Shown here piece after piece: positions 6,638 through 64,000 of a stretch of 64,000 nt of DNA (its first letter is position 1; each line of letters starts with the position of its first letter). The notes below the pieces were generated by a model. That model had not been told where the DNA came from, did no database searches, and was given only the letters and a program-made list of their open reading frames with translations. Position numbers and translations under genes: made by a program. The DNA comes from an uncultured Candidatus Saccharibacteria bacterium (GTDB lineage: Bacteria; Patescibacteriota; Saccharimonadia; CAILAD01; BJGX01), in assembly GCA_964481235.1 (NCBI GenBank), contig CAYZYH010000001.1, positions 25,372-89,371 of the forward strand, written 5' to 3'.

Positions 6638-6707
6638 ACAATACTAGTTTACCAAGCAATTCTATCTGTTGCTATACAAACTGGGGTGATTTAGTTAATT
6701 CTCTAAA

Positions 6708-7442: not shown

Positions 7443-7454
7443 AACTACCTTTAC

Positions 7455-8537
7455 CTATCGAAGCCTAGCAATATCGCTAATACTAATCACTACCATAAGA
7501 ATTAATAACCCCACAAAACCAGCAATATGTATTATATTCTCTCGCTCTGGAGTAATACGTATACCAATCTTTTGTAATATCAGTACAAACTGACGACCTC
7601 CGTCTAAGGCCGGTAATGGCAGGGCATTTATAACCGCTAAGCTAAGTGATATTGATGCTGTAAAAAGTATTATATAGCGAAATCCAAAGTTCATTATTTG
7701 GGAGAATATTGATACCGCCCCTATTGGACCAGACACCTGCTCACTTACTTTGCCAGCTGAAAACAGGCCTACAATAAGGCTACCAAATGCCGCTAGTGTT
7801 GCCCAAATAAATTGAAACATCATTACAAGTGCGGCGATTGGTGCAGTCCACCAACTGTAATAACTTAGCGACATTTGGTCGGCCGTAATACCTAAAATGC
7901 CATTTTTTTCATCATTACCTAGCACAACGGTTTTTTCAGTGACGCTACCCGACTTATTGACTTTTATTACTACGCTTTGGCCTGCATGCGCTTTTGTATA
8001 CTGCCTTAACCCCTCGTTGCTGGTAATCTGGGTATTGTCGATAGTAACAAGCCCATCACCTTGAGATAAGCCAGCCTTTGCAGCTGCACTATCTGGTGAG
8101 ACCGTTAAAATAGTTAACTCATTACTACTAGTTTGTTTGGGTTTTATGGGGCCAAAGTCTGGTAATGGTTGTCCCAGAGGTGGCATACCTACAATTAGCA
8201 AGAAGGTAAACAAGATATACGCTATTAAGAAATTCACCACTACCCCGGCCATAATAACTCGAGTTTTGGGCCAAAAACTCAGGCTAACAAAACTACCTTT
8301 ACCTTTCACCGATCCATCTTCGCCACGCAACCTTACAAATCCGCCAACTGGTAAAGCATTAATGCTATAAATTGTATTACCACGTTTTCTTCCATACATT
8401 CTCGGTGGAAACCCCACTCCAAACTCATCTACTATTACACCCTCACGTCTTGCCGACAAAAAGTGTCCAAGTTCGTGCGCAACTACTAAAATAGTAAATA
8501 GTATTAGTACACCAAGAATACTTATTGCAAGTATCAT
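7455..8537 (-). CDS. rseP: RIP metalloprotease RseP (site-2 protease, M50) with PDZ domain
   Basis: HELGHF zinc motif in TM1, central PDZ-like segment, C-terminal LDGG motif. Confidence 0.85.
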   Translation of the reverse strand: MILAISILGVLILFTILVVAHELGHFLSARREGVIVDEFGVGFPPRMYGRKRGNTIYSINALPVGGFVRLRGEDGSVKGKGSFVSLSFWPKTRVIMAGVVVNFLIAYILFTFLLIVGMPPLGQPLPDFGPIKPKQTSSNELTILTVSPDSAAAKAGLSQGDGLVTIDNTQITSNEGLRQYTKAHAGQSVVIKVNKSGSVTEKTVVLGNDEKNGILGITADQMSLSYYSWWTAPIAALVMMFQFIWATLAAFGSLIVGLFSAGKVSEQVSGPIGAVSIFSQIMNFGFRYIILFTASISLSLAVINALPLPALDGGRQFVLILQKIGIRITPERENIIHIAGFVGLLILMVVISISDIARLR

Positions 8538-9247
8538 TACCTACCAAACCTCCTCTTTCTTTCATTAAACTCAAGTAATATTTTATCTAGATCATTCTCA
8601 TTAAAATCTGGCCAAAATTTATCGACAAATTTCAGTTCAGAATAAGCACTATCCCAAAGTAAAAAGTTACTTAGCCGTTGCTCACCACTAGTACGCACTA
8701 TAAGATCGGGTGCTGGAACACCAGCGGTATATAAATGCTCTTTAACTGTTTCTTCTGTAACGTTTTCGGGCTTAATATTTTCCTGAATAATTTCACGGAC
8801 TGCTAACACTAGTTCTTCTTGCCCGCCATAGTTAAAACATGCCATAAATGTACCAGCAGTATTGTTTTTTGTTAGTTCCTCGGCTTGCTCAATAGCAGTA
8901 ACCACTTTTTTATCTAATTTATTACGCGAGCCAATAATACGCAGACGAACGTTCTTTTCGTTTAACTCTTTAGCGTCTTTAAGCACAACTTTAAGAGTAA
9001 GTTTCATTAGATAGCCAACCTCTTCGCTACTTCTTTGCCAGTTCTCAGTTGAGAACAAATAACAACTAAAGTAGGGGATGTTTTTATCAAAACAGGCCTG
9101 GGCAATATTTTTTAGGTTTTTATAACCAACAAGATGACCCTCAAAGGTACGCATACCGTGCTGTTTGGCCCAACGACGATTACCGTCTAGTATAAAGCCA
9201 ATATGTCGAATTTGCTGGGTAGATTCTTTCATAAATGTTTTTGCCAA
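8537..9247 (-). CDS. uppS: undecaprenyl diphosphate synthase (isoprenyl transferase)
   Basis: HIGFILDGNRRWAKQ, and a C-terminal cis-prenyltransferase motif (RTSGEQRLSNFLLWDS). Confidence 0.9.
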   Translation of the reverse strand: MAKTFMKESTQQIRHIGFILDGNRRWAKQHGMRTFEGHLVGYKNLKNIAQACFDKNIPYFSCYLFSTENWQRSSEEVGYLMKLTLKVVLKDAKELNEKNVRLRIIGSRNKLDKKVVTAIEQAEELTKNNTAGTFMACFNYGGQEELVLAVREIIQENIKPENVTEETVKEHLYTAGVPAPDLIVRTSGEQRLSNFLLWDSAYSELKFVDKFWPDFNENDLDKILLEFNERKRRFGR

Positions 9248-9257
9248 CTTGTTTTAT

Positions 9258-15094: not shown

Positions 15095-15433
15095 TTACAT
15101 TTTGTTATAGAAGAAAAAAAGCACTCCCAAAAGAATTATAATCACCACGCCCAGCGCCACCAGTATCTTGGTTTGGCTGATAGGTTCTCTTGGTGGGTTT
15201 TCAGATAGTAGGGTATCTACCTTGTCAGATTCAAGTTCTTCTGGAGTAATATTGAGATGATCGTCTATAATAACTTCTTTACTAGCATATTTTAAGCTTT
15301 CTGAGCCTTTTTGGGGGCTATTTGATGTATTTTTCACCTTTGCACGGCTATTTTCAGGCTTTGTAGTTACAGAGCTATTTTGAGCTCGTTTTTGAGCTTG
15401 ACGACGTTTTTTAGATTTAGACTTTTTGGCCAT
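15095..15433 (-). CDS. hypothetical tail-anchored membrane protein with Lys-rich N-terminus
   Basis: Strong RBS AAGGAGGG 5 nt upstream of the ATG. K/R-rich N-terminus and a C-terminal TM. Confidence 0.55.
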   Translation of the reverse strand: MAKKSKSKKRRQAQKRAQNSSVTTKPENSRAKVKNTSNSPQKGSESLKYASKEVIIDDHLNITPEELESDKVDTLLSENPPREPISQTKILVALGVVIIILLGVLFFFYNKM

Positions 15434-15558
15434 TATTTGCCCTCCTTTATCTAATACAATCTGTATTTATTATTATAGCAGGTAAATAAAATCCCTCTGA
15501 GTATATTAGATGCTCGTTATAGTTATCTATATTTAGGTATTGAAGCATAATTGCAGTA

Positions 15559-15583
15559 GATAAAACCCCCTAAAACTAGGGGG
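15559..15583 (-). terminator. rho-independent terminator after the 15596..15946 gene
   Basis: cccccta-aaac-taggggg hairpin, followed on the minus strand by TTTTATC. Confidence 0.55.
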
Positions 15584-15595
15584 TGAAATAGATAA

Positions 15596-15946
15596 TTAAT
15601 CTGGTTCTCTAAACAAAATTTCGCGCATTTCTGCCTTGAGTTTGCTTGCATAGTGGAAGGATATTATAGATAGTAATAGACTGGCCATCGGTAGGCTACC
15701 CATAACAAACCCAAGCAAGTAAGCATCTTTTGACTCGATTGGTAAACTGCCGTTATCAGCTACAGAGAAGACTATTGTAGCCATAGCAACAATTATTACT
15801 ATCTGTGCCATTAATACTGCCAAGCATACTCTTTTGAGATTTATGAGGTGTAGTTTTTCTGAGTCGTTAGCATCTAGGGCCAAGATCTCAGCAGTGCTTG
15901 GTAGTCTACCCCTATTGGCTTGATATGCATTGGTAGTACTGTTCAT
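15596..15946 (-). CDS. hypothetical small membrane protein
   Basis: 116 aa, two or three TM helices. ATGA-overlapped with the upstream ORF. Confidence 0.45.
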   Translation of the reverse strand: MNSTTNAYQANRGRLPSTAEILALDANDSEKLHLINLKRVCLAVLMAQIVIIVAMATIVFSVADNGSLPIESKDAYLLGFVMGSLPMASLLLSIISFHYASKLKAEMREILFREPD

Positions 15947-16299
15947 TGCTCTGCCTCTCTTGGGCCGGTTTCTTCTGGTGTTGTGTTGGCGTTGTTGTTA
16001 GCTGAAATGGCGAATAAGCTCGTCATTTGATTGGTGTAGGAAAATACTCCTACAATTAAGGCCAAATAAAACAATACTCGCCAACCAGATGAAGGATCAA
16101 TTGGTTTACCCTCAACAACGTATAAAAAGGTATTGAGAGTAATAAGAAATACACTAAATGAATTAACTACAAAACATATTTTGAAGAAAACCGACCAATT
16201 CCTGTCGCTCAACAGTTGAGATTGCTCATGAATATCATCAGTACTCTGTAAGATCTCTTTTGTCGTTGGTATTCTATTGAGAAGTAATGGCAATTGCAT
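15943..16299 (-). CDS. hypothetical small membrane protein
   Basis: 118 aa. RBS AAGGA 6 nt upstream. Extended -10 promoter upstream. Confidence 0.45.
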   Translation of the reverse strand: MQLPLLLNRIPTTKEILQSTDDIHEQSQLLSDRNWSVFFKICFVVNSFSVFLITLNTFLYVVEGKPIDPSSGWRVLFYLALIVGVFSYTNQMTSLFAISANNNANTTPEETGPREAEQ

Positions 16300-19912: not shown

Positions 19913-20572
19913 CTAGCTAACTTTCATTAAGCTAGCAGTAGCATTGCGAACAGCCTCACTTAGAGGAAGATATTCTAACTCCAACTCGGCATACAGAGCA
20001 CGCATTGCGGCAAGCGACTCCTCTTTGGCCTTGATCTCCTGATGCAAAGCCTGAAGCTTACTGACAGTTTCATCTAGCTTAGCCTGAAGTTCAGATGCCA
20101 AAGTGACAATGTTTGGGAAGCCATCATTGGTGTCTGCTGCTGCCTCGAGACCTACGGTCTCTGCAGTAGTGCCAACCTCTGGCTGATTAGAAGGTGTCTT
20201 TACTGGTTGCTTAGGAGCCCTAGTTTTTGGCTTGATGTTTTGAGTAGCATAAATTCGCTTGGTATGACGCTCGCGGGCATTTCGCAGGTCGCTCGCAGTA
20301 ATGCGCTTCTTGGTCATATCGATATGCCACAGGTATGTGCCATTAGGTTGCTTGTCGCCCTTCACCATCACCCGCATATAGCTGAGATGGCGCGAGATGG
20401 TTGCGCTATGGTGGTATAGACCCAGAGGCTCTAAAAGTTCCCTGAGGGTAAAAACTCGGTTCCCCGATTCATCACCAGGCATAGCCTGCAGAGCTTTCAG
20501 AACCTTATTGAGTATCTTCACCCATTCGTCTTCATTGCGAAGTCGCTTATTCTTTTCTGACAAAAGATCCAC
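19913..20572 (-). CDS. hypothetical protein: N-terminal winged-helix-like region, basic linker, C-terminal coiled coil (putative regulator)
   Basis: FTLRELLEPLGLYHHSATISRHLSYMRVMVKGDKQPNGTYLWHI resembles helix-turn-helix plus wing. C-terminus has heptad-like LQAKLDETVSKLQALHQEIKAKEESLAAM. GTG or TTG start. Confidence 0.5.
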   Translation of the reverse strand: MDLLSEKNKRLRNEDEWVKILNKVLKALQAMPGDESGNRVFTLRELLEPLGLYHHSATISRHLSYMRVMVKGDKQPNGTYLWHIDMTKKRITASDLRNARERHTKRIYATQNIKPKTRAPKQPVKTPSNQPEVGTTAETVGLEAAADTNDGFPNIVTLASELQAKLDETVSKLQALHQEIKAKEESLAAMRALYAELELEYLPLSEAVRNATASLMKVS

Positions 20573-20582
20573 CTTAGTTATG

Positions 20583-20597
20583 CGGGTAATTTACCCG
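20583..20597. promoter_or_regulatory. perfect 7-1-7 palindrome CGGGTAA-T-TTACCCG between promoter and start of the regulator-like gene (candidate operator)
   Basis: Checked by base pairing position by position. Lies at roughly +15 to +30 of the predicted transcript. Confidence 0.4.
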
Positions 20598-20614
20598 ACA
20601 AAATGGTCTTTGAG

Positions 20615-20643
20615 ATTGTAGCAATAAACTCTACATATGTCAA
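20615..20643 (-). promoter_or_regulatory. consensus promoter TTGACA-17-TACAAT for gene 19913..20572
   Basis: Minus-strand reading: cacaTTGACAtatgtagagtttattgcTACAATctc. Confidence 0.6.
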
Positions 20644-20653
20644 TGTGAGCTAT

Positions 20654-20683
20654 GTAAAAACCCCTAGAACATAATTCTAGGGG
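20654..20683 (-). terminator. intrinsic terminator after the GHKL ATPase gene
   Basis: 9-bp stem cccctagaa / ttctagggg with a 5-nt loop, followed on minus by TTTTTAC. Confidence 0.6.
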
Positions 20684-20696
20684 TTGGTTTATTAAT

Positions 20697-22364
20697 TTAC
20701 TGGGTTAGCAAGATAACAAAGGCAGCAAGCTCTGTGTCGAGCACTTCGGCTGCATGCTTTTGTGATTCTTCAGGTGAACAATGCAGGCTAAGTGCCTGAA
20801 TAGCCACCTGCTGTTGGTAGCGACGAATACAGAGGTCGGGGTTGCGACTGTAGTCGGCGCATTGTAGATACAAGGGGTGCTTGGTGTTGATCCACAAAAC
20901 ACCTACTCGCAAATCTAGTTGCCAGGGTCCACTGAGGTGTTGAGTTTCGCCAAGGCGCAAGCCAAACGACTTCGCCTTAACGGTTTTACGCTCCTTACCA
21001 GATGGGTCCGGAACCTTGGTTTCGCCACCATTGGTGGTTCTACCATTTCCACCGCCACTGTTGCCGCCGCCTCCACCAGTTGGTGGTGCATCGCCCCCAG
21101 TGCCGCTGTTTCCGCCACCAGAACCACCTTCTCCGGTCTTCTTTGGAGCAGATGTTTTGCTGGCAGGCACATCAGTTTCTTCGTCGTCGCCGGTAGGGTC
21201 GGGGCCTTGTGCTCCAGTACCCGGTAGATCGGCCGGAAATCGACCAACAAGATCGGCATACATTCTCATAGATGGGTCTTCAAAAAGCTTATTGAGAGCA
21301 TCCAGAGCTTTTTCGGCATTTTTCTCAAATCGTTCTGAGTCTTCCCGGCTAAGAGCCTCTTGGTAGTATTCCCTACCAATATGCTCATACCAATTCTCTA
21401 GTGCCATACAGAACTCTACAAAGCCATCGTTGTCTTCATAGCTTACTCTATCAGGACTCAGTGTAAGAGTGTTACTGAGCAACTCTCCTTCAAAAATTCC
21501 CGAACAAAGTGCCTGAACAATCTCGTCGTCCAGTAGCTCTGTGAGGCTCCTTTGGTTTTTTATAAGAGTCTCAAATGGTACACGATACGGTGTAGCCAGG
21601 GTACCTGTAGAAACGCTACCGCTATACTTGCCTTCAATTCGAAGGGCTAAGAACAGCTTGATCTCAACCAACTTATCACGCCTAGGCTCAAACAAGAACA
21701 GATCAAGTTTGGTACCACTATAAGGCTCAGCCACCGTCGTAAAGGTGTATTCTGGGCCCTTCAATGGTTGTACGGTAAAGCGCAACACCGTGTCGTTTCG
21801 AAGCATCTTGGTGCGAAAGTTGGTAACAGCTGTAGCAGCCAACTTATTCACATCAAACTCCGACGTTTTACGGTCTTTGGTAACACCATGCATTACCATG
21901 CGCGTACGCCAATTGGGGTTTACGGGGTGCTTTTGGCGTTTTTGTTGACTCTTGGAGAAAACAACCTCTACTTCTGAATCAGGAATATCAACTTCGTCAG
22001 CCGATTTCTCAATTTCATCGGTAACAAAGGTCCACTCCAGACCATTAGATGTAAATGTGAAGTAATCACACTTACCCAAGGGAGCTACCAGGCCACGGCC
22101 AAATTGACCATAGGCATCTAATTGCTCGCCCTTAATGCTACGGCCAACTGTCTGTAGAGCAGTGTTAAACTTCTCTTTGGTAACACCTACGCCGTCGTCA
22201 TAAACGCGAATTTCGCGCTTTTTGCGATTGATATCTACCCAAACATTTTGAGCATCGGCATCCATAGCGTTCTGGATAGCCTCTAAGATAACCGCAAAGA
22301 CATATGGGTAAGTTTCTGCGGCGGCCATGATGGCCGCTCCTACGTGGGGTTTGAGTTTGGCCAT
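20697..22364 (-). CDS. GHKL-superfamily (Bergerat-fold, HSP90/MORC-type) ATPase with Gly-rich low-complexity linker and uncharacterised C-terminal domain
   Basis: N-box ILEAIQNAMDA, G1 box RVYDDGVGV and G2 box GQFGRG within the first 100 aa. About 60-aa GGSGGGNSGTGG... linker. RBS GAGAGGA. One-nt TGATG overlap with the upstream gene. Confidence 0.6.
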   Translation of the reverse strand: MAKLKPHVGAAIMAAAETYPYVFAVILEAIQNAMDADAQNVWVDINRKKREIRVYDDGVGVTKEKFNTALQTVGRSIKGEQLDAYGQFGRGLVAPLGKCDYFTFTSNGLEWTFVTDEIEKSADEVDIPDSEVEVVFSKSQQKRQKHPVNPNWRTRMVMHGVTKDRKTSEFDVNKLAATAVTNFRTKMLRNDTVLRFTVQPLKGPEYTFTTVAEPYSGTKLDLFLFEPRRDKLVEIKLFLALRIEGKYSGSVSTGTLATPYRVPFETLIKNQRSLTELLDDEIVQALCSGIFEGELLSNTLTLSPDRVSYEDNDGFVEFCMALENWYEHIGREYYQEALSREDSERFEKNAEKALDALNKLFEDPSMRMYADLVGRFPADLPGTGAQGPDPTGDDEETDVPASKTSAPKKTGEGGSGGGNSGTGGDAPPTGGGGGNSGGGNGRTTNGGETKVPDPSGKERKTVKAKSFGLRLGETQHLSGPWQLDLRVGVLWINTKHPLYLQCADYSRNPDLCIRRYQQQVAIQALSLHCSPEESQKHAAEVLDTELAAFVILLTQ

Positions 22365-23149
22365 CAGCGTACAATCCTCTCTTCGCTCTTGTGGGCACGA
22401 ATCTTGCGACGACTTTGTTCGTTACTAAGAGAATCAAACAAGCTACTAAGCTCGCTGATTCCGTCGTAACCTACGCGTTTTCTTAAGCCTCTACGCTGCT
22501 CCTCGCTCACAGCGTCGCTATTGAAATAACGAGCCAGTGGTAGAAGAGCCTGTAACGAGGCAACAAAGATATTCTCAACTTCTACTACAGATAGAGTGGT
22601 CTCATCTGGCGTAGACGTGAGAATAACAGATTGGTTATTAGCCTCAACTGGCTTAGCTCTGTAGAGCACCGGACTTTGCTTTACATTATCCCAAAAATCG
22701 GCAATGTAAAACTGAGTTGTCGAAACAACGATCTCAGCATATACTTTAGCCAACTCGTCCTTATCTTTGGTGCGTCCAGTTCTTTGCAGAATATACCTCA
22801 GATACTGCTTGGTTCTAGCGTAAGCCAGAGCCTCACTAGCATCTGTGGCACTACACACTCCAAGGCCAACTGCATAGGCAATTGTCCTATCTTCTTTCGC
22901 AAGATCTTCCCATTCCGTACACTTATAGCCAAATAGCTCTAGCACTACTCGAACACGCAAAAGAATCTCACCTTGAGTGTTAAAGCCATTGCGAATCCAC
23001 ACTCTAAGTGTAGAGTGGTAACTAACATTTATGAGTTGAGCAAACAGCTTTTGTTCAGGTGGCTTATCGAATCTACGTATAAATGCCTCAAAGCACTCTT
23101 TTGTAGTTCCTCTAAATACCACGGCGCCATCTAGCTCTCTAGTGGACAC
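22364..23149 (-). CDS. hypothetical protein (261 aa), first gene of a two-gene operon with the GHKL ATPase
   Basis: GTG start with AAGGTGA RBS. No recognisable motif. Translationally coupled to the downstream gene. Confidence 0.45.
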   Translation of the reverse strand: MSTRELDGAVVFRGTTKECFEAFIRRFDKPPEQKLFAQLINVSYHSTLRVWIRNGFNTQGEILLRVRVVLELFGYKCTEWEDLAKEDRTIAYAVGLGVCSATDASEALAYARTKQYLRYILQRTGRTKDKDELAKVYAEIVVSTTQFYIADFWDNVKQSPVLYRAKPVEANNQSVILTSTPDETTLSVVEVENIFVASLQALLPLARYFNSDAVSEEQRRGLRKRVGYDGISELSSLFDSLSNEQSRRKIRAHKSEERIVR

Positions 23150-38592: not shown

Positions 38593-38623
38593 GTAAAAAC
38601 CACCTGCTAACTAGGTGGTTTTT
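38593..38623. terminator. bidirectional intrinsic terminator
   Basis: aaccacct-gctaact-aggtggtt followed by TTT. Confidence 0.55.
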
Positions 38624-38658: not shown

Positions 38659-40116
38659 TTATTTGCAGGATCCAGAAACAGCAATGCCACTTATGCGATC
38701 ATTCATCCAGACAAGAGTATCTTTAAAGCTTGCATTCATAGTCTGGTAATGATCAACAAGCCCTTGTGGGTTATAGCTTTGAACTGCATACTTACTAGTG
38801 GTGTACTCTTTGAGATTGGTTGTATTACCCGATGCGCACAGTCTGGCGTAACCGGCTAGGTTTTGGCGGGGCAACACTACGTTGTCGTGCATACCTTGAT
38901 TAATAAGCTTGGGTGTATCAGTTTTTATAGGGCCCACAATGTTACTCTCCATGTCGGCCATAAATTGAGCATATATTTTATTACTAGCGAGATTACCAGT
39001 TTTGGCAGCAGCTATAAACTCTTGGGTATAAATATTTGCCGATCTATTCACGCCAAGATTATTTGGCCAGTACCTGTTGACTGTGTCTATACACTCACGC
39101 GACACATCGGTCTGTAGAGATTTAATCCATTGTGGCAATAGTATTCTATTAACCGGATATTCTCGCTTGTACCAATCTTGATAGCTAGTGAGTACGAATG
39201 GCCCAAACCAGTTAATATTGGCATTATTGGTAATAGCATCGGTGAGGGTTTCGTTTACGCTAGTAACCGGGCCAAAACCGATTGCACCTCGCAATTTGAT
39301 GTCTGGTGCATATTTAGAAGCGATCGCGTCGGCCCAGAAAGCAGCATGTCCGCCTTGGCTGTAGCCACCAGTAAATATGGCATTTTCATCGATATTATTT
39401 TTTGACAACTCAAGATTTTCTAGTGAGTGAATACTATCTAGTACTGCGCGACCTTCTATATCACCCACCATGTAGTGATGAATTCTGCTGGGATCACGCA
39501 GGCCCTCATAGTCGGTAATAACCACAATATAACCTTGACTTGCATACGCAGCCATCAAGCTATCGTAATTTGCCCAGTTGCGCTTAGCGGGCTGTTCTAA
39601 ACTACCTCCGCAAGCGTCTCCAATACCAATTGTACCTGGCGCAAATGCCAGCACTGGTAGTTTTTTTGTACCAATATTGGAAGGAACGTATACTCTAGCA
39701 TAAATTGGTACATCATTAACTATGCCATCTGAGCTGGTATACACATAGGTTTGTTTGGTGTGACCCTGTGTAACTGGCAAATCAAAATTACGGTTATTTT
39801 GCCGAATACGTTCAAGTGTTTGAGCAGCGGTAAAGTTTTGTGCAGGCTCGGTAGAAACTATCTTGCCAGTGTCAATTTTGGGTGGCTTGGTTGATTCAAG
39901 TTGTTTGGTTGGTGGCGAGTAGATAACTTTGTTTGAGTCTTTGTAAGATTGCCATCTAAGAAATCCAGCAATAGCAATCATGATAACTAGTTCTACAGCG
40001 ATGATGATATAAAATTTTTTGCTTATTTTGCTTTTAGTAATCTTTGGCGACGTCGTAACCAAGTGTGAGGCGCTTTTGTGTTGTCGAATAGTTTTTTTGA
40101 GTGTAGCTTTTTTCAT
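38659..40116 (-). CDS. secretory-lipase-like alpha/beta hydrolase, membrane anchored
   Basis: N-terminal TM. GYSQGG nucleophile elbow typical of the LIP family. C-terminal Cys pair. Confidence 0.55.
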   Translation of the reverse strand: MKKATLKKTIRQHKSASHLVTTSPKITKSKISKKFYIIIAVELVIMIAIAGFLRWQSYKDSNKVIYSPPTKQLESTKPPKIDTGKIVSTEPAQNFTAAQTLERIRQNNRNFDLPVTQGHTKQTYVYTSSDGIVNDVPIYARVYVPSNIGTKKLPVLAFAPGTIGIGDACGGSLEQPAKRNWANYDSLMAAYASQGYIVVITDYEGLRDPSRIHHYMVGDIEGRAVLDSIHSLENLELSKNNIDENAIFTGGYSQGGHAAFWADAIASKYAPDIKLRGAIGFGPVTSVNETLTDAITNNANINWFGPFVLTSYQDWYKREYPVNRILLPQWIKSLQTDVSRECIDTVNRYWPNNLGVNRSANIYTQEFIAAAKTGNLASNKIYAQFMADMESNIVGPIKTDTPKLINQGMHDNVVLPRQNLAGYARLCASGNTTNLKEYTTSKYAVQSYNPQGLVDHYQTMNASFKDTLVWMNDRISGIAVSGSCK

Positions 40117-40592
40117 ATACCCACCTTAGACATTAAATACATGTCTACGTCTGTATCTATATCGGTAAGAATCTTATTAATATCATAGCCCGATCGTTCA
40201 TAAAAATGTTGTTGGTTGTGAGTTACCAGCTCTATAGAGTCAACTTTTCTGGCTTTTAGGCCCCGCTCGGTTTCGCTCAGAAGTAACTGACCTAGTTGTT
40301 TTTTTCTAAGTGCTGGCACAATATATAGCCAGTACAAAAAAGCCCTCATATTGCTTTTTTGGATGCCAGATATAGAATAGCCTTCTAACTGGTTGTTTTG
40401 ATATATACCCATGAACAGCCTATAAGGATGAATGGTGCCCAACCTGATCTTATTGATATTATTGGTACGGCGCACATTTTGTCTATACGATGGCGAAAAA
40501 TATGCAAAATCTTCTTCTAGTGCTTGATCAAACAGATAATATAGTCTGCCACTATGAAAGATTGGTATTTTTTTTATAACAATATCAGCCAT
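40113..40592 (-). CDS. GNAT family N-acetyltransferase
   Basis: ALRKKQLGQLLL acetyl-CoA-binding motif and a C-terminal YERSGY motif. Confidence 0.65.
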   Translation of the reverse strand: MADIVIKKIPIFHSGRLYYLFDQALEEDFAYFSPSYRQNVRRTNNINKIRLGTIHPYRLFMGIYQNNQLEGYSISGIQKSNMRAFLYWLYIVPALRKKQLGQLLLSETERGLKARKVDSIELVTHNQQHFYERSGYDINKILTDIDTDVDMYLMSKVGI

Positions 40593-40631: not shown

Positions 40632-41564
40632 TTAAAGGTTAGAAATAAAGTGCTCGGCCTCTAGTGCCGCGCGACAACCATCGCCAGCCGCGGTAATTGC
40701 TTGTCTATAGCGCGAGTCGGCTACGTCACCGGCGGCGTATACGCCAGGTATTTCTGTGCTAGTGTCGGGCTTGGGTGTGAGATAGCCTTTTTCATCTCTA
40801 TTCAATACACCGTCAAAAAGTTTAGTGGCTGGCGTGTGACCAATAGCTACAAACAGTCCGCCACAGGCTATGTTGTGCTCTTTGCCAGTCACGGTATCTT
40901 TTAGCTTTACTCCCTCTACAAAATCTTTGCCTAGCACATCTACTACTTGAGCATTCCAGATGATATCAATTTTTTTGTGCTTTTTTACACGTTCTTGCAT
41001 AATCTTACTAGCTCTAAATTCGTCTCTGCGGTGAACAATAGTAACCTTACTTGCAAATTTAGCTAACGTAAGAGCTTCTTCCATAGCGCTATCGCCACCA
41101 CCAGCCACTACCACGTGCTTATCGGTAAAGAAAAAGCCATCACAGGTTGCACAGGCCGATATGCCTTTGCCCATTAAACGCTGTTCGTTTTCTAAGCCCA
41201 GCCAGTTTGCACTCGCCCCGGTCGATATAATAACGGTTTTGGTATTGTACATGTCATCACCTACCCAAATCTTTTTGGGTTGAGCTTTTAGATCAATCTT
41301 GGTTACAAAATCGGCTCTAAATTCGGTACCAAATCGCAAAGCCTGAGCCTTCATCTGCTCCATTAGCTCGGGACCCATAATACCGTCTTTGAACCCCGGA
41401 AAGTTCTCTACCTCAGATGTAAGTAGTAGTTGCCCGCCAGGAGTATCACCGGCTATCATTAAAGTACTAAGACTGGCGCGCGAAGCATAAATTGCCGCTG
41501 TGTACCCAGCCGGTCCAGCACCAATAATTATTACATCATAAATTTTGTTCGTTTTTTCGCTCAT
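40632..41564 (-). CDS. trxB: thioredoxin-disulfide reductase
   Basis: GAGPAGYTAAIYA FAD motif, CATCDGFFF redox CxxC, GGGDSAMEEA NADPH motif. Confidence 0.9.
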   Translation of the reverse strand: MSEKTNKIYDVIIIGAGPAGYTAAIYASRASLSTLMIAGDTPGGQLLLTSEVENFPGFKDGIMGPELMEQMKAQALRFGTEFRADFVTKIDLKAQPKKIWVGDDMYNTKTVIISTGASANWLGLENEQRLMGKGISACATCDGFFFTDKHVVVAGGGDSAMEEALTLAKFASKVTIVHRRDEFRASKIMQERVKKHKKIDIIWNAQVVDVLGKDFVEGVKLKDTVTGKEHNIACGGLFVAIGHTPATKLFDGVLNRDEKGYLTPKPDTSTEIPGVYAAGDVADSRYRQAITAAGDGCRAALEAEHFISNL

Positions 41565-41619
41565 AGAAATTATATTATACCAAAGATATCAGTGATTACT
41601 TAATTTTCGAATTAATACT

Positions 41620-42396
41620 TTATGGTCTTAGTGTGCCAGCAAAAACCTGCCAGGCTAAAGCTGATTTTGCTACTAAGCTAAGGATAATATAAACACGCTC
41701 TCCATATAGATAATCGCGCCATGGGCCAATTTTTTTGTATTGCAATACCATGTTAATAGCAAAGCAGTTGAAAAATATAAACAAGCTTACAAATATGTAG
41801 TAAACAAAAGTGGGTATTTTGGCATCGCCAATACTAAATTGTGCCGAAGCCCAAAAAGTGAGCGCTATACCTATCCAAGGCACTATGCCTGCCAAACAAC
41901 CAACATAGTAACTCAGCCAGTTGGTTTTTTGAGTAGTCTGGTTGTGTACCTCCATTATTAGACCACACAGATTCATAACGGCTGTTAAGGTGAATAGCGC
42001 TAGAAGTGTCACTATGTCGTATATACCAGTTAGCATAGCTATTGCTACTATCATGGTGCTCGCACTTATGCTGTATTCTATCCAGCGAGCGCGGTTAATT
42101 CCTTTGGCAAGGTCGGTCTCATAGCCTTTGCGCCAAACTGTCGTAATTACCAAGTGTGCAATACCACTCATCAACAAAAAGGCCACCACCAGGTATGCTA
42201 GGTTTATATTAAACAGAGCTTTTGTAGCTGGTTCTAAAGATTGGGTGTTGTAATTAAATTGCAAAAAAGAAATTGTTACCGGCAAAGTAAAGCTTTTGCT
42301 TAGGTACAATATAAGACCAGCTTGGGCAAAATGCAGACCAGCAGCGATAAGATTTAAGTTGCGTAATTTTTTGAAAGAAATTTTAGATTCACTCAT
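41620..42396 (-). CDS. heliorhodopsin-like 7TM protein (putative retinal-binding)
   Basis: 258 aa, 7 TM. Motifs RWIEYSISAS (TM3 Glu), GCLAGIVPW, and SLVAKSALAWQVFAGTL with Lys in the last helix. Confidence 0.6.
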   Translation of the reverse strand: MSESKISFKKLRNLNLIAAGLHFAQAGLILYLSKSFTLPVTISFLQFNYNTQSLEPATKALFNINLAYLVVAFLLMSGIAHLVITTVWRKGYETDLAKGINRARWIEYSISASTMIVAIAMLTGIYDIVTLLALFTLTAVMNLCGLIMEVHNQTTQKTNWLSYYVGCLAGIVPWIGIALTFWASAQFSIGDAKIPTFVYYIFVSLFIFFNCFAINMVLQYKKIGPWRDYLYGERVYIILSLVAKSALAWQVFAGTLRP

Positions 42397-42488
42397 TACT
42401 ACTCTCCATTTGGTTATTTAGTTATTGTAGCACAAGTTCTTTTACATGGCTGTGATATAATAATTATAGGTAAATAAGGAGTGAAAAA

Positions 42489-42869
42489 ATGACTGGATTT
42501 GTAACCAATATAGAAAAAGATACGCTCGAAAACGACAATTTTCGCAAAGTGCTCTACACCGCCAAAAACATGCAACTAGTAGTGATGAGCCTAGATGCAG
42601 GTGAAGAAATTGGCCTCGAAACCCACCCTGAGCATGATCAATTTATAAGGGTAGATAAGGGTAATGCCAAGGCTATTTTGAATGGTGAAGCGTCAGAACT
42701 ATCTGATGGTAGCTGCGTGATTATTCCGGCTGGCGTGGAACACAATGTAGTAAATACTGGTGACGGCGAGCTCAAACTTTACACCATATATTCGCCACCA
42801 GAACACCCCGATGGCACTGTGCACGCCACCAAGGCCGATGCCATGGCCGACCCCCACGAGCAACACTAA
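42489..42869 (+). CDS. cupin domain protein
   Basis: HPEHDQF...GVEHNVVNTG two-His cupin motifs. Confidence 0.65.
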   Translation: MTGFVTNIEKDTLENDNFRKVLYTAKNMQLVVMSLDAGEEIGLETHPEHDQFIRVDKGNAKAILNGEASELSDGSCVIIPAGVEHNVVNTGDGELKLYTIYSPPEHPDGTVHATKADAMADPHEQH

Positions 42870-59067: not shown

Positions 59068-59595
59068 TTAAAGCTTAGCGGTTCCTTCAATTCGCTCACT
59101 TATTTCAGAGGGAAACATATTGTCTGCTACTAAAGAGCTAGCATTATGCCAGGCTGGGTTATAACTACCTGAAACGGCTACGTCGCGCTCAGCCTCTGGC
59201 CCACCAATAGTTAGATCTATTAATTCATGGCGCGCATAGCCTAAGTAAAAAAACTCCCCTTCATGCTCAATCACTGAGCCAGTAAGTACGACATTGTCTT
59301 TACCCAGACCTAGTTCTTCATTTAACTCGCGCCAAATGCCGTCTATAGCACTAATATCTGACTCTTCTAGGCCACCACCAGGGTATACAACGTAAGGATC
59401 TCGACCTGGGCGAACTCGATCTATGCCTAATACTTTGTTGCCATCTTGACTATAAATAATAGCCCTACATCTGTCGGGTCTAGTAGTGGTGGCATCGGGA
59501 ATGAAGGCATATTTTTCTTGTAATCTCAAAAGTGTCGCTGGAACACTCTCTGCTCTTGGTTCTATCTCTCTTGGTTCATTTCTTGGTTCGTTCAC
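59068..59595 (-). CDS. Nudix hydrolase
   Basis: Nudix box GGGLEESDISAIDGIWRELNEELGL. Confidence 0.75.
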   Translation of the reverse strand: MNEPRNEPREIEPRAESVPATLLRLQEKYAFIPDATTTRPDRCRAIIYSQDGNKVLGIDRVRPGRDPYVVYPGGGLEESDISAIDGIWRELNEELGLGKDNVVLTGSVIEHEGEFFYLGYARHELIDLTIGGPEAERDVAVSGSYNPAWHNASSLVADNMFPSEISERIEGTAKL

Positions 59596-60799
59596 GGGTT
59601 ACCTTTACATGTTTTACTATTTTATTAGCAGTCTGTTCTATTGTACCAGAGTTATTCACCACAATGTCGGCGTGTTGTTGATACTGAGCCAACCCTTGCT
59701 GCAGTTTAGTTTTATCTTTCTTTTGTTGCTGGCGTTTAAGCTTTATTGGGTTTAGATGAGCAAACTGCTTAGTATTTCGCTCAGATCTTTGCTTATCAGA
59801 TAGAGTAAGTAGTGTTGGCACCCAGCGCTCCCCCAAAATTAGCTTGAGAGCTATACTAATATCCACTCCATGCAAACTTTCTAGTGTGGCCCTATCTATA
59901 TGCCTGTTGGTTGCCAAAAAATGAGTAATTGTAAGGGCGGTTTTTGATGGTTTAGCATAGGCTTTTTGGTAGTCACGAGTATGTTCGTTAAAAAAGCCGA
60001 CCTTAAGTCTAGTAAACGAATAATTGTCCTGCAAAAACTGAGCTACTGTGCCCTTGCCAGTTTCGCTTAGGCCGGCTAGGCCAACAATAACTGGGTTGTT
60101 AGCAAATAGTGGTGGAATGTTATGTTTTGTTACTTGTTGACGAATAGAGTTTTGTACTTCAATAGCCGGGCAATCAACTAAAACGGTAATATTGTTTGTG
60201 TGTTGATCTATTAAGATTTTTTCTAGATTTTTTTGATAAGTTGCATATAGTCTGTTCTGTTTTAGGCTAAAACTTCTACCTTCGCTTCGAGCTGAGCGTA
60301 ACACTTGGTTGTAGCACTCTATTTTTTTTTGCCAAGGAGTGCAAGGCTTTAAGAATATTTCTATTCTACTGCCAAGAGGGGTAACGGCTAGGTCATTTTT
60401 AATCTTTTTATCGACTGCTTTGGCGATTTTGTTTAGCGCTAGAGTATCTTTTGGTCTTTTACGCTCGCGTGTCAAAAAAGTTGCAATAAGTTGAGCCCGC
60501 AACATTCCCGCACCTCTCTCTACAACCGCCACATCTAAATTTGTTGCCAGCAAAACCTTAGTTAGTCGGTTGTTGTAAGCGTCTATAAGTGCCTCGCACA
60601 GTTCACTGAAGGTAGATTTTACAAACCACCATTCAAAGAATTCTTTTGGGCTTAAATTGTCTGGTATCTTTTTTGAATAACCTGTAAACGAACCAAAGTT
60701 GTGTACATGAATACCTTGTGTCTCATAGGTCAATAGCTCGGCTTGTGTAGATTTACCTACAAAATCTGGGCCAGATATCTCGATAATTGTTTTTGTCAT
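59576..60799 (-). CDS. tandem P-loop kinase-like protein (thymidylate-kinase-like N-domain; dephospho-CoA-kinase/cytidylate-kinase-like C-domain)
   Basis: Start chosen at MTKTIIEISGPDFVGKSTQ (Tmk-like P-loop). Second P-loop VGLAGLSETGKGT. CoaE/Cmk-like tail DIVVNNSGTIEQ. Confidence 0.4.
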   Translation of the reverse strand: MTKTIIEISGPDFVGKSTQAELLTYETQGIHVHNFGSFTGYSKKIPDNLSPKEFFEWWFVKSTFSELCEALIDAYNNRLTKVLLATNLDVAVVERGAGMLRAQLIATFLTRERKRPKDTLALNKIAKAVDKKIKNDLAVTPLGSRIEIFLKPCTPWQKKIECYNQVLRSARSEGRSFSLKQNRLYATYQKNLEKILIDQHTNNITVLVDCPAIEVQNSIRQQVTKHNIPPLFANNPVIVGLAGLSETGKGTVAQFLQDNYSFTRLKVGFFNEHTRDYQKAYAKPSKTALTITHFLATNRHIDRATLESLHGVDISIALKLILGERWVPTLLTLSDKQRSERNTKQFAHLNPIKLKRQQQKKDKTKLQQGLAQYQQHADIVVNNSGTIEQTANKIVKHVKVTRERTKK

Positions 60800-60839
60800 G
60801 TTGAAAATTGTTATATTGTGCGATATTATACTATTTATT

Positions 60840-61811
60840 ATGTACCATGTAAAGCCTAACAAAGATAACATAGTATTAAAACAATTTAAGACACGCGCCC
60901 ACTATGACCTTGAAATAGATGGCTATAACTTTATTCAACAATACTATACAAAGATACCTCGTCGTATCCGAACAAATAGTAAAAAGTTGAAAATTGAGTA
61001 TGAAGATGTGGGTAAAAATTGTTCTACCCTAGGTGAAGCACTTGATAAAAATCTAATGATAGATATGAGCAAAACTTGGCAAGAGCTAGCTTTACTCGCC
61101 AACAAAAGCTGGTCACATACCCATGCCCGGGGTGGCACGCAATTATTCTACATAGATAGGCTTTCAAGAATTCACGATGCGAAGCTAGCCTTACTTACAA
61201 ACTATCAATTACCAAAACTTGATAATTATGAGGCAAAGATTGAACCAACTTTCTTCTCAGATTTAGGTAAAAAAATACAAGAATTACAATATGGTATTTG
61301 TGTACCATCGCAAGGAGATCTACACGAACGCAATATTTTTACTAACGGTGTGATAGTAGATTTTGAAGGGGCTGGCTTTAATAATATTGCCACCGACATA
61401 GCAACATTCGTCTGGCACACAATATTTGCTGGTAGTTACTTTGGGCCTCAATACGCCAAGTGGGCAACTACTAAAACATCTAAAAAGATAACAGTGGGAC
61501 CAAAATGCTTCTCTATTTTTGGCAATACCATTAATATAAACATTGGTATAAACCGGCAAGAACTAATTTTGCAGTTTATTTACCAATACATTAATAGGCT
61601 TAACCTTGCAGACCAAGAGAAATACTTAGATCAAGTTTGTTTAGCTATTGCTTTTCGTATTCTCACAACTTTTCAATTGAGTACAATGAGCGAAGAGGAT
61701 CAAAAAATGTCACTAGTTTTTGCACACTTGTTTGCTAACACACAATTTTCACTCTGGGAAAAACTAAGGTTCTTTTTGAATTCTAGTGAAGATTTAAAGA
61801 CATCACTCTAG
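60840..61811 (+). CDS. phosphotransferase-family (APH/choline-kinase-like) small-molecule kinase
   Basis: GDLHERNIF (Brenner H..D....N motif) and DFEGAG (DFG-like). Start taken at the internal Met to avoid a divergent overlap. Confidence 0.55.
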   Translation: MYHVKPNKDNIVLKQFKTRAHYDLEIDGYNFIQQYYTKIPRRIRTNSKKLKIEYEDVGKNCSTLGEALDKNLMIDMSKTWQELALLANKSWSHTHARGGTQLFYIDRLSRIHDAKLALLTNYQLPKLDNYEAKIEPTFFSDLGKKIQELQYGICVPSQGDLHERNIFTNGVIVDFEGAGFNNIATDIATFVWHTIFAGSYFGPQYAKWATTKTSKKITVGPKCFSIFGNTININIGINRQELILQFIYQYINRLNLADQEKYLDQVCLAIAFRILTTFQLSTMSEEDQKMSLVFAHLFANTQFSLWEKLRFFLNSSEDLKTSL

Positions 61812-62451
61812 CAATAACTTCTACCAACTGACTATCGCTATATTTGCGAATGTTATTTTTTATACTCATAAGTGAGTCTCGAATATCTTCCATATACTCT
61901 TTCTCTTCAATAGTGTTACTAGCCTGAGCATAGACTTTGCATAATATATAAGCCAGTTTTATCAACTTACGTCTTTCACCATAACTAGCCGGATGCGATA
62001 GTCTTACTAGTTGTTTAATAGTAAGGGCTTTTAGCTTATGAAAATCTAACACTGAAAACTTTCGAATTGTATCTAGACTAAGTATGGGTATGGCGCAATT
62101 AGAACTTAGCAAGGTATTGTGCTTATTTGAATCTATACAGGCCTGTACAGCTTTTCCATCTAGATACATATAGCTATTTTTTAAGTCTTTTATTGTGCTG
62201 TACTCAACGGCTGTATTACTACATTGCAAACCAAGTCTTTTTTCTAGTGCAATGCGTAATTCAGCCAAGATTCTGTAGCTATTTTGGTCTAAATTTTTTA
62301 CTATAACCACATAGTCGATATCGGAATCGCGATCTAGGGTATGGCTAGCAGCGCTACCACACAAAACAATACCGGCTAGATTTTTACCTAGCTCTTTATA
62401 GTGCTCTGAGTATATTACTTTTAAAAATTCTTGGGGTATTAGATTGTACAC
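61783..62451 (-). CDS. Pol-beta-superfamily nucleotidyltransferase (KNTase/ANT-like)
   Basis: GIVLCGSAASHTLDRDSDIDYVVIV GS...D.D motif, helical C-domain. Convergent 29-nt overlap with the kinase gene. Confidence 0.55.
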   Translation of the reverse strand: MYNLIPQEFLKVIYSEHYKELGKNLAGIVLCGSAASHTLDRDSDIDYVVIVKNLDQNSYRILAELRIALEKRLGLQCSNTAVEYSTIKDLKNSYMYLDGKAVQACIDSNKHNTLLSSNCAIPILSLDTIRKFSVLDFHKLKALTIKQLVRLSHPASYGERRKLIKLAYILCKVYAQASNTIEEKEYMEDIRDSLMSIKNNIRKYSDSQLVEVIARVMSLNLH

Positions 62452-62614
62452 TTTTTTACTAGGCTTGACGGTTATGTGTTGGTATTTATTATACTACTTA
62501 TCGCTACTTAGGGCATAGTTTGTACAAATACTTTAAGACCACACATACTTATTAATAATATAAAGTAGTAATTATATAAAATATCCCTTGCGCAATTCGC
62601 AAAGGATAGTTAAT

Positions 62615-62812
62615 TTATTGTTGTAACTTAAGACCTCTTTTGGCTATTTCCTCTGTTAGTGCGCGCTCATATGCTGCTCTAGTAGAGGTCCAGCCCGGAT
62701 TATTCTTTCCAGTTTTTTTTAGATTGATCAATTCTTGATCGCTTAACTTAGCAAACCCAGCTTGGTATTCTAGGTAACTTTGTTGTGGGTTGGTAGCTTT
62801 AGAACCTGTCAC
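62615..62812 (-). CDS. small hypothetical protein (65 aa)
   Basis: ORF only. Terminator-like palindrome downstream at about 62880-62905. Confidence 0.3.
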   Translation of the reverse strand: MTGSKATNPQQSYLEYQAGFAKLSDQELINLKKTGKNNPGWTSTRAAYERALTEEIAKRGLKLQQ

Positions 62813-62936
62813 GCCCTGCCCTCTCCAGTTATAAATCGCTAGTTTTTGTATTATATCACTTTTTATAAGTAAAAGGCCCCAACAATTGTTGAAGCCTTTT
62901 TAAGTTTAATTTACTTTAGTATCTAGTAGGTACTAA

Positions 62937-64000
62937 CTAGTCTTCGTCGGTTGACGGTGCTTCATCGCTCGGCTCAGCCGAGGCTTCTGCACTATCTACT
63001 GCAACATCAGAGGCAACTTCGGGCGAACCCAAGCCGTTGCCGTTAACCATCTTATCTACACCTAGGGTCATGAGGGTATTTAGAAGGCCAGAGCCCACCG
63101 AGTCACCACCAACCTGGATTTGCGGGGTGAGTACCACTCCGCCCTTACCGATCTGCTCAAGAGCAGCAACCAAACCAGTCTGCTGCCGGCCAATGGCCTG
63201 CTGCTGGGCATCGAAGCCCTTGGCAACAGCAAGACCCTTGGCCTCGGTGGCCGTGGCTTCTGCCAGACCAGTGGCCTGAATAGCAGCAGCCTCAGCTTCA
63301 CCTGTCAGCTTGGTCACATCGGCAGCTGCCTGACCCTTGGCACGCGCAACTGCAGCATCACCTTCAGCCTGGGCAACCGCGGCTTCTGCCTCGGCACCCT
63401 TGACCTCGATACTAACCTTAGCACGGGCCAGATCGGCCTGAGCATCGGCCACACCGCGCTGGTTCTCTAGGGCAATACGAGCCTGTTCAGCAATCTGCTG
63501 GCTCTCGTACGTCGCCTTCTGCTGGGCCGCAATCTCTCGCGTCGTCAGCACCTCGACCAACTCAGCCGGGAAGATGACGTCCTGAATGTACACACCCCGG
63601 ACCTCTACCTGGTATCGTGTGAGATAGGTAGTGACGTACGATTCGGCCTGAGCCTGAACTTCGTCACGCTTCTGAATGAACTCGGCGGCGCCGAGCGACT
63701 GCAGCTTGTTACGGAAGTAGTTGCCCACCGCCGACTGCAGAACCTCATTAACCAGGTTCTGCATGGTTCCCACCATGCTGATGACCTTCGGCGCCCGGGT
63801 GTCGGGCACGTGAATCTGCACCTGTAGGTCAATGCTAAAGTCAAACGCTTCCTTGCTCTTGGCGTCGATCGACGACAGTCGGCCGTCGAGATCGTGCGCA
63901 TCACTGGTCGCGTTGGCCCAGTTGAGCGTCAAAATAGACGTTGGCACAATCTCGGCCTCGTAGATGCGCGGGTTTAGGGTGTACTTGCCGGTACGCAGAG
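62937..64000 (-). CDS. SPFH/Band-7 flotillin-like protein (partial; N-terminus beyond the window end), GC-rich
   Basis: Frame stays open upstream of the track start (GTG 63947) to position 64000. Flotillin-type Ala/Glu repeats (AEAEAAVAQAEGDAAVARAKGQAAAD...). Acidic Ser/Asp tail. Confidence 0.6.
   Translation of the reverse strand, partial: LRTGKYTLNPRIYEAEIVPTSILTLNWANATSDAHDLDGRLSSIDAKSKEAFDFSIDLQVQIHVPDTRAPKVISMVGTMQNLVNEVLQSAVGNYFRNKLQSLGAAEFIQKRDEVQAQAESYVTTYLTRYQVEVRGVYIQDVIFPAELVEVLTTREIAAQQKATYESQQIAEQARIALENQRGVADAQADLARAKVSIEVKGAEAEAAVAQAEGDAAVARAKGQAAADVTKLTGEAEAAAIQATGLAEATATEAKGLAVAKGFDAQQQAIGRQQTGLVAALEQIGKGGVVLTPQIQVGGDSVGSGLLNTLMTLGVDKMVNGNGLGSPEVASDVAVDSAEASAEPSDEAPSTDED

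Follow-up and report, generated by a model that had tools for sequence, protein, structure and literature searches.

The 64,000-nucleotide stretch of contig CAYZYH010000001.1 analyzed here (the window) carries a heliorhodopsin (HeR) coding sequence on the minus strand at 41620..42396. The 258-amino-acid sequence, whose coordinates include the stop codon, starts with ATG and ends with TAA (41622..41620), and a GGAG Shine-Dalgarno sequence (42407..42404) lies 8 nt 5' of the start. A first-pass annotation, made from the letters of the DNA, had proposed a heliorhodopsin-like gene of 258 residues with seven helices at this position, and the open reading frame (ORF) was recovered at exactly these coordinates. 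The protein matched the Pfam Heliorhodopsin profile (PF18761), the check that had been suggested for this identity, over all of its positions (1–242 of 242) and far above the cutoff (324.7 versus 26.7 bits, E = 4e-97). No other Pfam family was reported for it at E <= 0.01. It also scored 337.9 bits against the NCBIfam equivalog NF038020 ("heliorhodopsin HeR"; cutoff 100), a match by which the NCBI annotation pipeline would name the protein heliorhodopsin automatically. The top relatives in the PDB, identified using phmmer, were TaHeR (6is6/7u55, E = 2.5e-87) and then 48C12 (E about 4e-56). Pairwise alignments gave 60% identity to TaHeR (248 aligned residues) and 45% to 48C12. A sequence identical to the window HeR is already present in NCBI and Logan assemblies.

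An AlphaFold2 (AF2) model of the protein was built from 68 homologues and had a mean predicted local distance difference test score (pLDDT) of 90.5 and a predicted template modeling score (pTM) of 0.86. The model contains seven long helices (residues 8–32, 66–85, 102–122, 128–154, 160–187, 196–221, and 229–256), in agreement with the number first proposed, and the long AB beta-hairpin typical of HeRs at 37–65, with strands at 37–48 and 53–65. Foldseek comparisons with TaHeR yielded template modeling (TM) scores of 0.88–0.92 (0.88/0.91 to 6is6) and root-mean-square deviations of 1.9–2.2 A, and comparisons with 48C12 yielded TM scores of 0.84–0.86. Type-1 rhodopsins reached TM scores of only about 0.6, with 9%–18% identity. 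Ratios of nonsynonymous to synonymous substitution rates (dN/dS) against two orthologues were 0.039 and 0.044, equal to those of the neighboring trxB gene; values of about 0.04 indicate strong purifying selection on the HeR. All relatives examined have a complete, uninterrupted reading frame. By sequence and modeled fold, the ORF at 41620..42396 is a genuine, intact heliorhodopsin gene.

Key residues were taken from structural papers (mostly Kovalev 2020, PMC7049168; bioRxiv 10.1101/2025.11.27.691015) and mapped via pairwise alignments. Three segments had been singled out in the first-pass annotation as HeR hallmarks, and each maps to a functional site. RWIEYSISAS, put forward as the counter-ion region, corresponds to R104–S113 of helix C and includes E107 (codon GAA, 42076..42078, minus strand), the predicted Schiff-base counter-ion, whose aligned counterparts are E108 in TaHeR and E107 in 48C12. 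In the chain of the E108D mutant (7clj), the E107 column holds Asp, confirming the register of this alignment. GCLAGIVPW corresponds to G166–W174 of helix E, where C167 and G170 belong to the fenestration and P173 is the pi-bulge residue. The third segment, YIILSLVAKSALAWQVFAGTL, forms helix G and contains S240 and K244. The lysine proposed there as the Schiff-base candidate, K244 (codon AAA, 41665..41667, minus strand; SLVAK motif), aligns exactly with the retinal-binding lysines of 48C12 (K241) and TaHeR (K238) and is the predicted attachment site for retinal. S240 aligns with S237 of 48C12 and S234 of TaHeR and forms part of an SxxxK motif, in which Ser replaces Asp212 of type-1 rhodopsins. 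There was no match to the type-1 rhodopsin family (PF01036, Bac_rhodopsin), and helix G carries SxxxK rather than DxxxK.

The cavity histidines H22 and H81 align with H23 and H80 of 48C12 and with H23 and H82 of TaHeR. Also conserved are N15, Y92, N101, R104, Y108, E149, Q219, Y229, and E233, as is the surface cluster Q25/S245/W249. Of the 47 key positions listed, 41 have the 48C12 residue, and five of the other six (M216, T138, A112, N142, and Y163) have the TaHeR residue, so that its pocket is of the TaHeR-like type. K244, E107, S240, H81, R104, G170, F209, A213, and M216 are invariant in 68 of 68 clade homologues. The column of H22 (48C12 H23) holds Phe in seven of the 68 close homologues, while H81 is invariant; judged from the alignment, the network for proton transfer may be changed in this sub-group. 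In the loops, 14 Lys and Arg residues lie on the N-terminal side and four on the opposite side, and this positive-inside count predicts the inverted topology characteristic of HeRs, with a cytoplasmic N-terminus. Viral, proton-transporting HeRs of subfamily 2 are described as having neither a fenestration motif nor Pro172, with His at 48C12 positions 162/166 and Glu at position 202 (PMC7049168; bioRxiv 10.1101/2025.11.27.691015). The window protein has Y163, C167, L205, and P173 at these sites.

One wall of a predicted lateral fenestration beside the beta-ionone ring of retinal is formed by the helix E segment Y163–W174 (YYVGCLAGIVPW; 41875..41910, minus strand). Criteria for a carotenoid site in this opening include opposing aromatic residues at 48C12 positions 162/206, non-bulky residues at 166/210, and Gly at 169 (Kornilov et al. 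2025, bioRxiv 10.1101/2025.11.27.691015). The motif is complete in the window HeR, with Y163, C167, and G170 in helix E and F209, N210, and A213 in helix F (48C12 positions 162, 166, 169, 206, 207, and 210). As a sequence motif, the fenestration and carotenoid-binding site is thus present in full.

No tRNA, rRNA, or Rfam family was identified at gathering score across the window, and the taxonomy was therefore drawn from relatives; the empty Rfam and tRNA scans likewise indicate no riboswitch or other RNA near the HeR. A word-indexed protein search scored 8,000 candidates, 7,980 of which had E <= 1e-10; the few named matches were "heliorhodopsin HeR" of Saccharibacteria, Nomurabacteria, or Patescibacteria group bacteria. 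The 80 best HeR loci of a species-representative genome set were taken for comparison, and the majority of these 80 loci are labeled Candidatus Saccharibacteria, Saccharimonadales, or Saccharimonadia. One of them, L002 (88% HeR identity; submitter label Candidatus Saccharibacteria), has a ten-gene order in common with the window at 69%–92% protein identity. This synteny identifies the host genome as Saccharibacteria-type, a monoderm member of the Candidate Phyla Radiation (CPR), and bears out the monoderm context first supposed for the gene. Saccharibacteria and other CPR bacteria are counted here as monoderm because HeRs are reported to be monoderm-restricted and yet occur in Patescibacteria (Bulzu et al. 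2021, PMC8612252).

In a neighbor-joining tree, the window HeR is sister to that of L002 within a large Saccharibacteria/Patescibacteria clade. TaHeR falls just outside the Patescibacteria clade, grouped with Hadarchaeota and Dehalococcoidales sequences. The GC content around the HeR (0.40–0.41) equals the window average. Recent horizontal transfer from archaea, considered on account of the high identity to TaHeR, was rejected based on the tree placement and the average GC content. From these comparisons, the gene looks vertically inherited within the Saccharibacteria/Patescibacteria clade, with no recent import. Two further observations concern the tree. TaHeR is 56%–62% identical to HeRs from metagenome-assembled genomes (MAGs) of Saccharibacteria, Hadarchaeota, and Actinomycetota (loci L080, L074, L077, and L081) and lies next to the CPR clade in the tree; members of the TaHeR-like subfamily have evidently crossed between phyla and between domains. 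A Saccharibacteria HeR at L060:6001-6786 falls outside the other members of the clade on a very long branch and is either a divergent copy or an artifact of ORF calling.

The gene directly downstream of the HeR, on the same strand after a 55-nt gap, is trxB (40632..41564), which codes for a thioredoxin-disulfide reductase (TIGR01292, 402 bits, cutoff 343; Pfam Pyr_redox_2). It is followed, also on the minus strand, by genes with Pfam matches to a GNAT acetyltransferase (40113..40592) and a LIP-family secreted lipase-like protein (38659..40116). The only strong terminator in a terminator scan lies at 38595..38623. The generic sigma-70/terminator scan produced fewer matches than shuffled sequence and missed conserved -10 boxes, which became apparent on inspection and alignment of the spacers. 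An extended -10-like element upstream of the HeR, TGCTACAAT (42424..42432, minus strand; consensus match), lies in the 92-nt divergent spacer common to the HeR and a cupin gene. Its TG-N-TACAAT core is kept in the window, L082, L083, and L002, and flanking spacer positions vary. A perfect extended -10, TGGTATAAT (41574..41582, minus strand), is located 9 nt upstream of the trxB ATG, which has no Shine-Dalgarno sequence. TG-N-TATAAT before trxB is conserved in four lineages, while the remaining HeR-trxB spacer has accumulated indels and substitutions. This pattern suggests that TGGTATAAT may be a promoter of trxB itself, yielding a leaderless or near-leaderless mRNA in these Saccharibacteria, and trxB seems capable of independent transcription.

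Gene order was compared among the related loci to see how far the pairing extends. The arrangement of a divergent cupin gene followed by HeR-trxB-GNAT-LIP is complete in L082 and L083 (95% HeR identity), and the order HeR-trxB-GNAT-LIP is common to L002, L082, and L083. Direct adjacency was found only at HeR identities of at least 88%. At 76% (L012) another ORF lies between the two genes, and at about 70% the neighbors are unrelated, including a PF1765-like protein (L084) and His_Phos_1 and DUF2207 proteins (L085). Searches with ten window neighbors against the 80 loci (tblastn) identified trxB at most 6 kb from the HeR in six, directly adjacent only in L002; in L003, L009, L042, and L054 it is 3–6 kb away and, in two of these, on the opposite strand. 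Clustering of 975 ORFs from 78 loci yielded no neighbor family in more than 13 loci, with trxB in seven and adjacent in two, the window included. Among 150 genes directly flanking the HeR (77 loci, Pfam), the most common were ClpB-like AAA+ genes (six times), followed by HisKA/HATPase_c, MFS, AcrB, and NAD_binding_10 (four times each), and Pyr_redox_2 was outside the top 25 families. The same neighbor recurring in an operon across related organisms is the mark of a regulatory HeR with a dedicated partner (Cho et al. 2022, 2024), and trxB does not recur in this way. Because its adjacency is confined to close relatives, it carries little functional weight. As a conserved partner of the HeR, trxB was rejected by tblastn, clustering, the Pfam scan of flanking genes, and context look-ups in relatives with 95%, 71%, and 70% HeR identity alike; it is the ordinary housekeeping gene and probably no dedicated partner. 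The earlier description of the HeR as lying next to trxB therefore holds in the window, where a true TrxB is encoded 55 nt away, and is lost beyond the closest relatives.

Two other neighbors recur. On the plus strand, divergent from the HeR, a 126-amino-acid Cupin_2 protein is encoded at 42489..42869 (Pfam Cupin_2, 57 bits). Its closest solved relative is BH2720 (E = 6e-33), a structural-genomics protein without known function; identification of the cupin as a characterized enzyme was rejected since nothing can be inferred from that relative. A BH2720-like Cupin_2 gene occurs within 6 kb, and indeed within about 2.2 kb, of the HeR in nine of 78 loci, the window included. These loci (also L003, L007, L008, L015, L019, L051, and L072) span several branches of the HeR tree, and distance and orientation vary. 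Cupin_2 is the most recurrent HeR neighbor family after an ABC ATPase and is outside the published HeR neighbor groups. In L015, L031, L039, L044, L045, and L051, a gene for a ClpB-like double-AAA+ protein of ~828 amino acids directly follows the HeR in convergent orientation. It occupies about 6700..9250 (locus coordinates) in loci with a full flank, and MurT and a MurA-like gene lie close by. No other family flanks the HeR directly as often (6 of 150), and this one is restricted to one sub-clade.

Genes for chromophore synthesis were sought among 66 window ORFs (non-nested, at least 90 amino acids) using Pfam; the window is a small part of the genome. None of these ORFs codes for a retinal-forming dioxygenase (blh/BCD) or for phytoene synthase, phytoene desaturase, or lycopene cyclase (crtB, crtI, and crtY), as had been noted from the sequence. 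The only isoprenoid enzyme is the undecaprenyl-diphosphate synthase UppS (8537..9247). No type-1 rhodopsin (Bac_rhodopsin), SacR included, was identified among the same ORFs. In rhodopsin-encoding Saccharibacteria, blh was not found in bins that were 79%–98% complete (Jaffe et al. 2022, PMC9296517). Type-1 rhodopsins from these bacteria acquire externally supplied retinal within 30 s, an ability likened to the opening of TaHeR, a fenestration idea the authors credit to Shihoya et al. 2019, and actinobacterial hosts were proposed as the retinal source (PMC9296517). Since Saccharibacteria are reported without blh, the chromophore of the window HeR is most likely taken up from outside, from a host or the community. 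By analogy, the suggestion in the first-pass annotation that retinal is scavenged from a host is reasonable, and it has already been published for Saccharibacteria type-1 rhodopsins.

Taken together, these results are best explained by a functional TaHeR-like heliorhodopsin that acts as a retinal-binding sensor or regulator and is inherited within the Saccharibacteria/Patescibacteria HeR clade; we put the probability of this interpretation at about 85%. As far as alignments and the model can tell, the protein lacks none of the sequence and fold features required to hold retinal at K244, opposite the counter-ion E107, in a scaffold with the N-terminus inside. By analogy with characterized HeRs, all-trans retinal would be bound at K244 and green light absorbed in a pocket where T138, A112, N142, and M216 are in TaHeR states. 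The photocycle would be slow and without ion pumping; ion transport is not expected because the protein is without the features of the proton-transporting viral subfamily. Retinal would be taken up externally, from the host or community, and enter through the fenestration. Light would then alter the activity of other proteins via the cytoplasmic face. Regulatory precedents for HeRs include glutamine synthetase (Cho 2022), photolyase (Shim 2022), and the OcHeR-OmrDE ABC transporter (PMC11109279).

Several points weigh against this interpretation. The positions that set the width of the opening, I171 and F206, are in the bulkier, narrower state of 48C12 and not in the wider state of TaHeR (F172/A200), so that retinal may enter more slowly than it does in TaHeR. 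The data point to no particular partner protein, and neither HisKA nor Response_reg was identified among the 66 ORFs of the 64-kb window. The terminator scan identified no terminator-like site between the HeR and trxB, making co-transcription by read-through possible. The absence of retinal synthesis genes covers 64 kb, and their absence genome-wide rests on the literature (PMC9296517). The papers found appear to contain no biophysical characterization of a Saccharibacteria or other CPR heliorhodopsin.

Other functions would account for part of the data. The HeR could be the input of a histidine kinase/response regulator cascade whose transducer is encoded elsewhere in the genome. Two-component domains are significantly over-represented near HeRs in several phyla, including Patescibacteria (Bulzu 2021, PMC8612252), HisKA/HATPase_c domains are found in the flanking genes of related loci, and the conserved Q25/S245/W249 cluster is a proposed signaling latch in 48C12 (PMC7049168). 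The frequency in those flanking genes is low, though (4 of 150), and the only HATPase in the 64 kb belongs to a HATPase_c_3 protein without HisKA, ~20 kb away; we regard such a cascade as unlikely. It is more doubtful still that the protein serves as a two-antenna light harvester, with an exogenous xanthophyll in the fenestration next to retinal and an energy-related or enzymatic function instead of sensing. The full carotenoid-site motif (Y163/F209, C167/A213, G170, and N210) satisfies the 2025 preprint criteria, and the cavity residues are all conserved around the Schiff base, where anion binding was raised by Kovalev 2020 (PMC7049168). Carotenoid binding by HeRs is nevertheless derived from docking and sequence motifs in that single preprint (bioRxiv 10.1101/2025.11.27.691015), an energy-coupling function has been shown for no cellular HeR, and the bulky side chains of I171 and F206 constrict the opening, as they do in 48C12.

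A functional pair with TrxB, in which the HeR binds the reductase on the cytoplasmic side and raises its activity in light as a photo-oxidative defense, within a HeR-trxB-GNAT-lipase light operon, would fit the shared strand, the 55-nt gap, and the lack of a terminator-like site before 38595..38623. The four-gene order has been retained in L002, L082, and L083 despite synonymous divergence (dS) of 0.7–1.5, and trxB is at most 6 kb away in 7 of 78 loci (window included) compared to ~1%–2% expected for a random single-copy gene in a ~1 Mb genome. Redox proteins including thioredoxin are enriched near HeRs (Bulzu 2021, PMC8612252), an oxidative-stress role has been proposed in CPR (Chiriac 2022, PMC9166423), and HeRs in other phyla regulate operon partners (PMC11109279). 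Against this stand the loss of adjacency below 88% HeR identity, with a gene intervening at 76% and unrelated neighbors at ~70%; the remaining trxB loci, 3–6 kb off and two on the opposite strand, which look like residual synteny; the absence of Pyr_redox_2 from the 25 most common families of flanking genes; the conserved extended -10 of trxB, 9 nt before its ATG; and the ten neighbor groups of Cho 2024 (PMC11109279), which do not include TrxB. We consider the pair improbable. Its most specific form, in which the HeR was recruited as a light-gated regulator of thioredoxin reductase in this genus-level lineage, with the host as sole supplier of its retinal and perhaps of a xanthophyll antenna, is very improbable; if true, it would represent a new class of HeR partner and a light-triggered redox defense available only while the epibiont is attached to a pigment-producing host. 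Least credible of all is a relic, an apoprotein to which retinal never becomes available in this organism and whose role, if any, does not depend on light. A chromophore pathway was found neither in the window nor, by report, in Saccharibacteria (PMC9296517), but the dN/dS of about 0.04 matches that of a housekeeping enzyme, the retinal lysine, counter-ion, and pocket residues are invariant in 68 homologues, and every relative examined retains an uninterrupted, full-length frame.

Outside the HeR neighborhood, GC content is about 0.40 in most of the window and peaks at 0.48 in 20001..22000. This peak covers a 555-amino-acid HATPase_c_3 protein (20697..22364, minus strand) and an abutting ORF of 261 amino acids without a Pfam match (22364..23149, minus strand), which could be a foreign or defense-type gene pair. 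A second peak (0.475) is located at 62001..64000. Several window ORFs of 110–430 amino acids have no Pfam match, such as 15095..16299, 59576..60871, and 60798..61811.

Among characterized proteins, the sensor or regulator proposed here is most similar to TaHeR from the Thermoplasmatales archaeon SG8-52-1 (6IS6, 7U55, and 7CLJ). The two have the same counter-ion, lysine, and pair of histidines, the same retinal-pocket states (T138, A112, N142, M216, and Y163), and closely matching folds (TM 0.88–0.92), and the source organism of TaHeR, too, is reported to have no retinal pathway (PMC9296517). The window HeR differs in seven extra residues in the E-F loop (AQFSIGD) and in its fenestration lining, which is 48C12-like (I171/F206) where TaHeR has F172/A200. 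Its host is bacterial, whereas that of TaHeR is archaeal, and TaHeR falls outside the Patescibacteria clade. With 48C12, the founding member from an actinobacterial fosmid (6SU3 and 6UH3), it shares the Schiff-base cavity, the E149 region, and the surface clusters. It differs from 48C12 in the pocket (Q213 to M, N138 to T, S112 to A, and I142 to N) and at the dimer interface (Y179 to W).

Saccharibacteria also encode type-1 rhodopsins (SacR, PMC9296517), which occur in the same host phylum, have no blh nearby, and are subject to the same hypothesis of retinal obtained from the host. Both have a lateral opening for external retinal, identified in the window HeR as a sequence motif. SacR proteins are outward proton pumps with a DTS motif, match Bac_rhodopsin, and have normal topology, whereas the window protein matches HeR models only and is predicted to be inverted. 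Like the regulatory HeRs with operon partners (PMC11109279), the window HeR has a close neighbor on the same strand; unlike in those systems, the neighbor is outside the ten recurrent groups, its adjacency is shallow, and it has a promoter-like element of its own.

The nearest relatives in host and kind are the CPR HeRs of Chiriac et al. 2022 (PMC9166423), who screened 1,326 CPR genomes, reported 80 HeRs in Saccharimonadia and SLVAK as a common helix-G motif, and suggested an oxidative-stress-related sensory role. The window HeR belongs to the same family, has the same phylum-level host and the SLVAK motif, and shows no difference in kind; it is a further member of that set or one of those already counted there. 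Bulzu et al. 2021 had found two-component and redox proteins, thioredoxin among them, to be enriched around HeRs (PMC8612252). HeRs in Saccharimonadia, the SLVAK motif, the suggested oxidative-stress link, and retinal borrowing by rhodopsin-bearing Saccharibacteria are all published (PMC9166423, PMC8612252, and PMC9296517), and the window HeR is therefore an ordinary member of a group already known in kind, host, and largely interpretation. What is new is limited to the HeR-trxB arrangement at genus level, which is absent from Chiriac et al. 2022 (PMC9166423). The heliorhodopsin was correctly recognized from raw sequence alone, a residue-level annotation of this gene is now available, and its 60% identity to the crystallized TaHeR makes it a convenient test case for the biochemistry of CPR heliorhodopsins.

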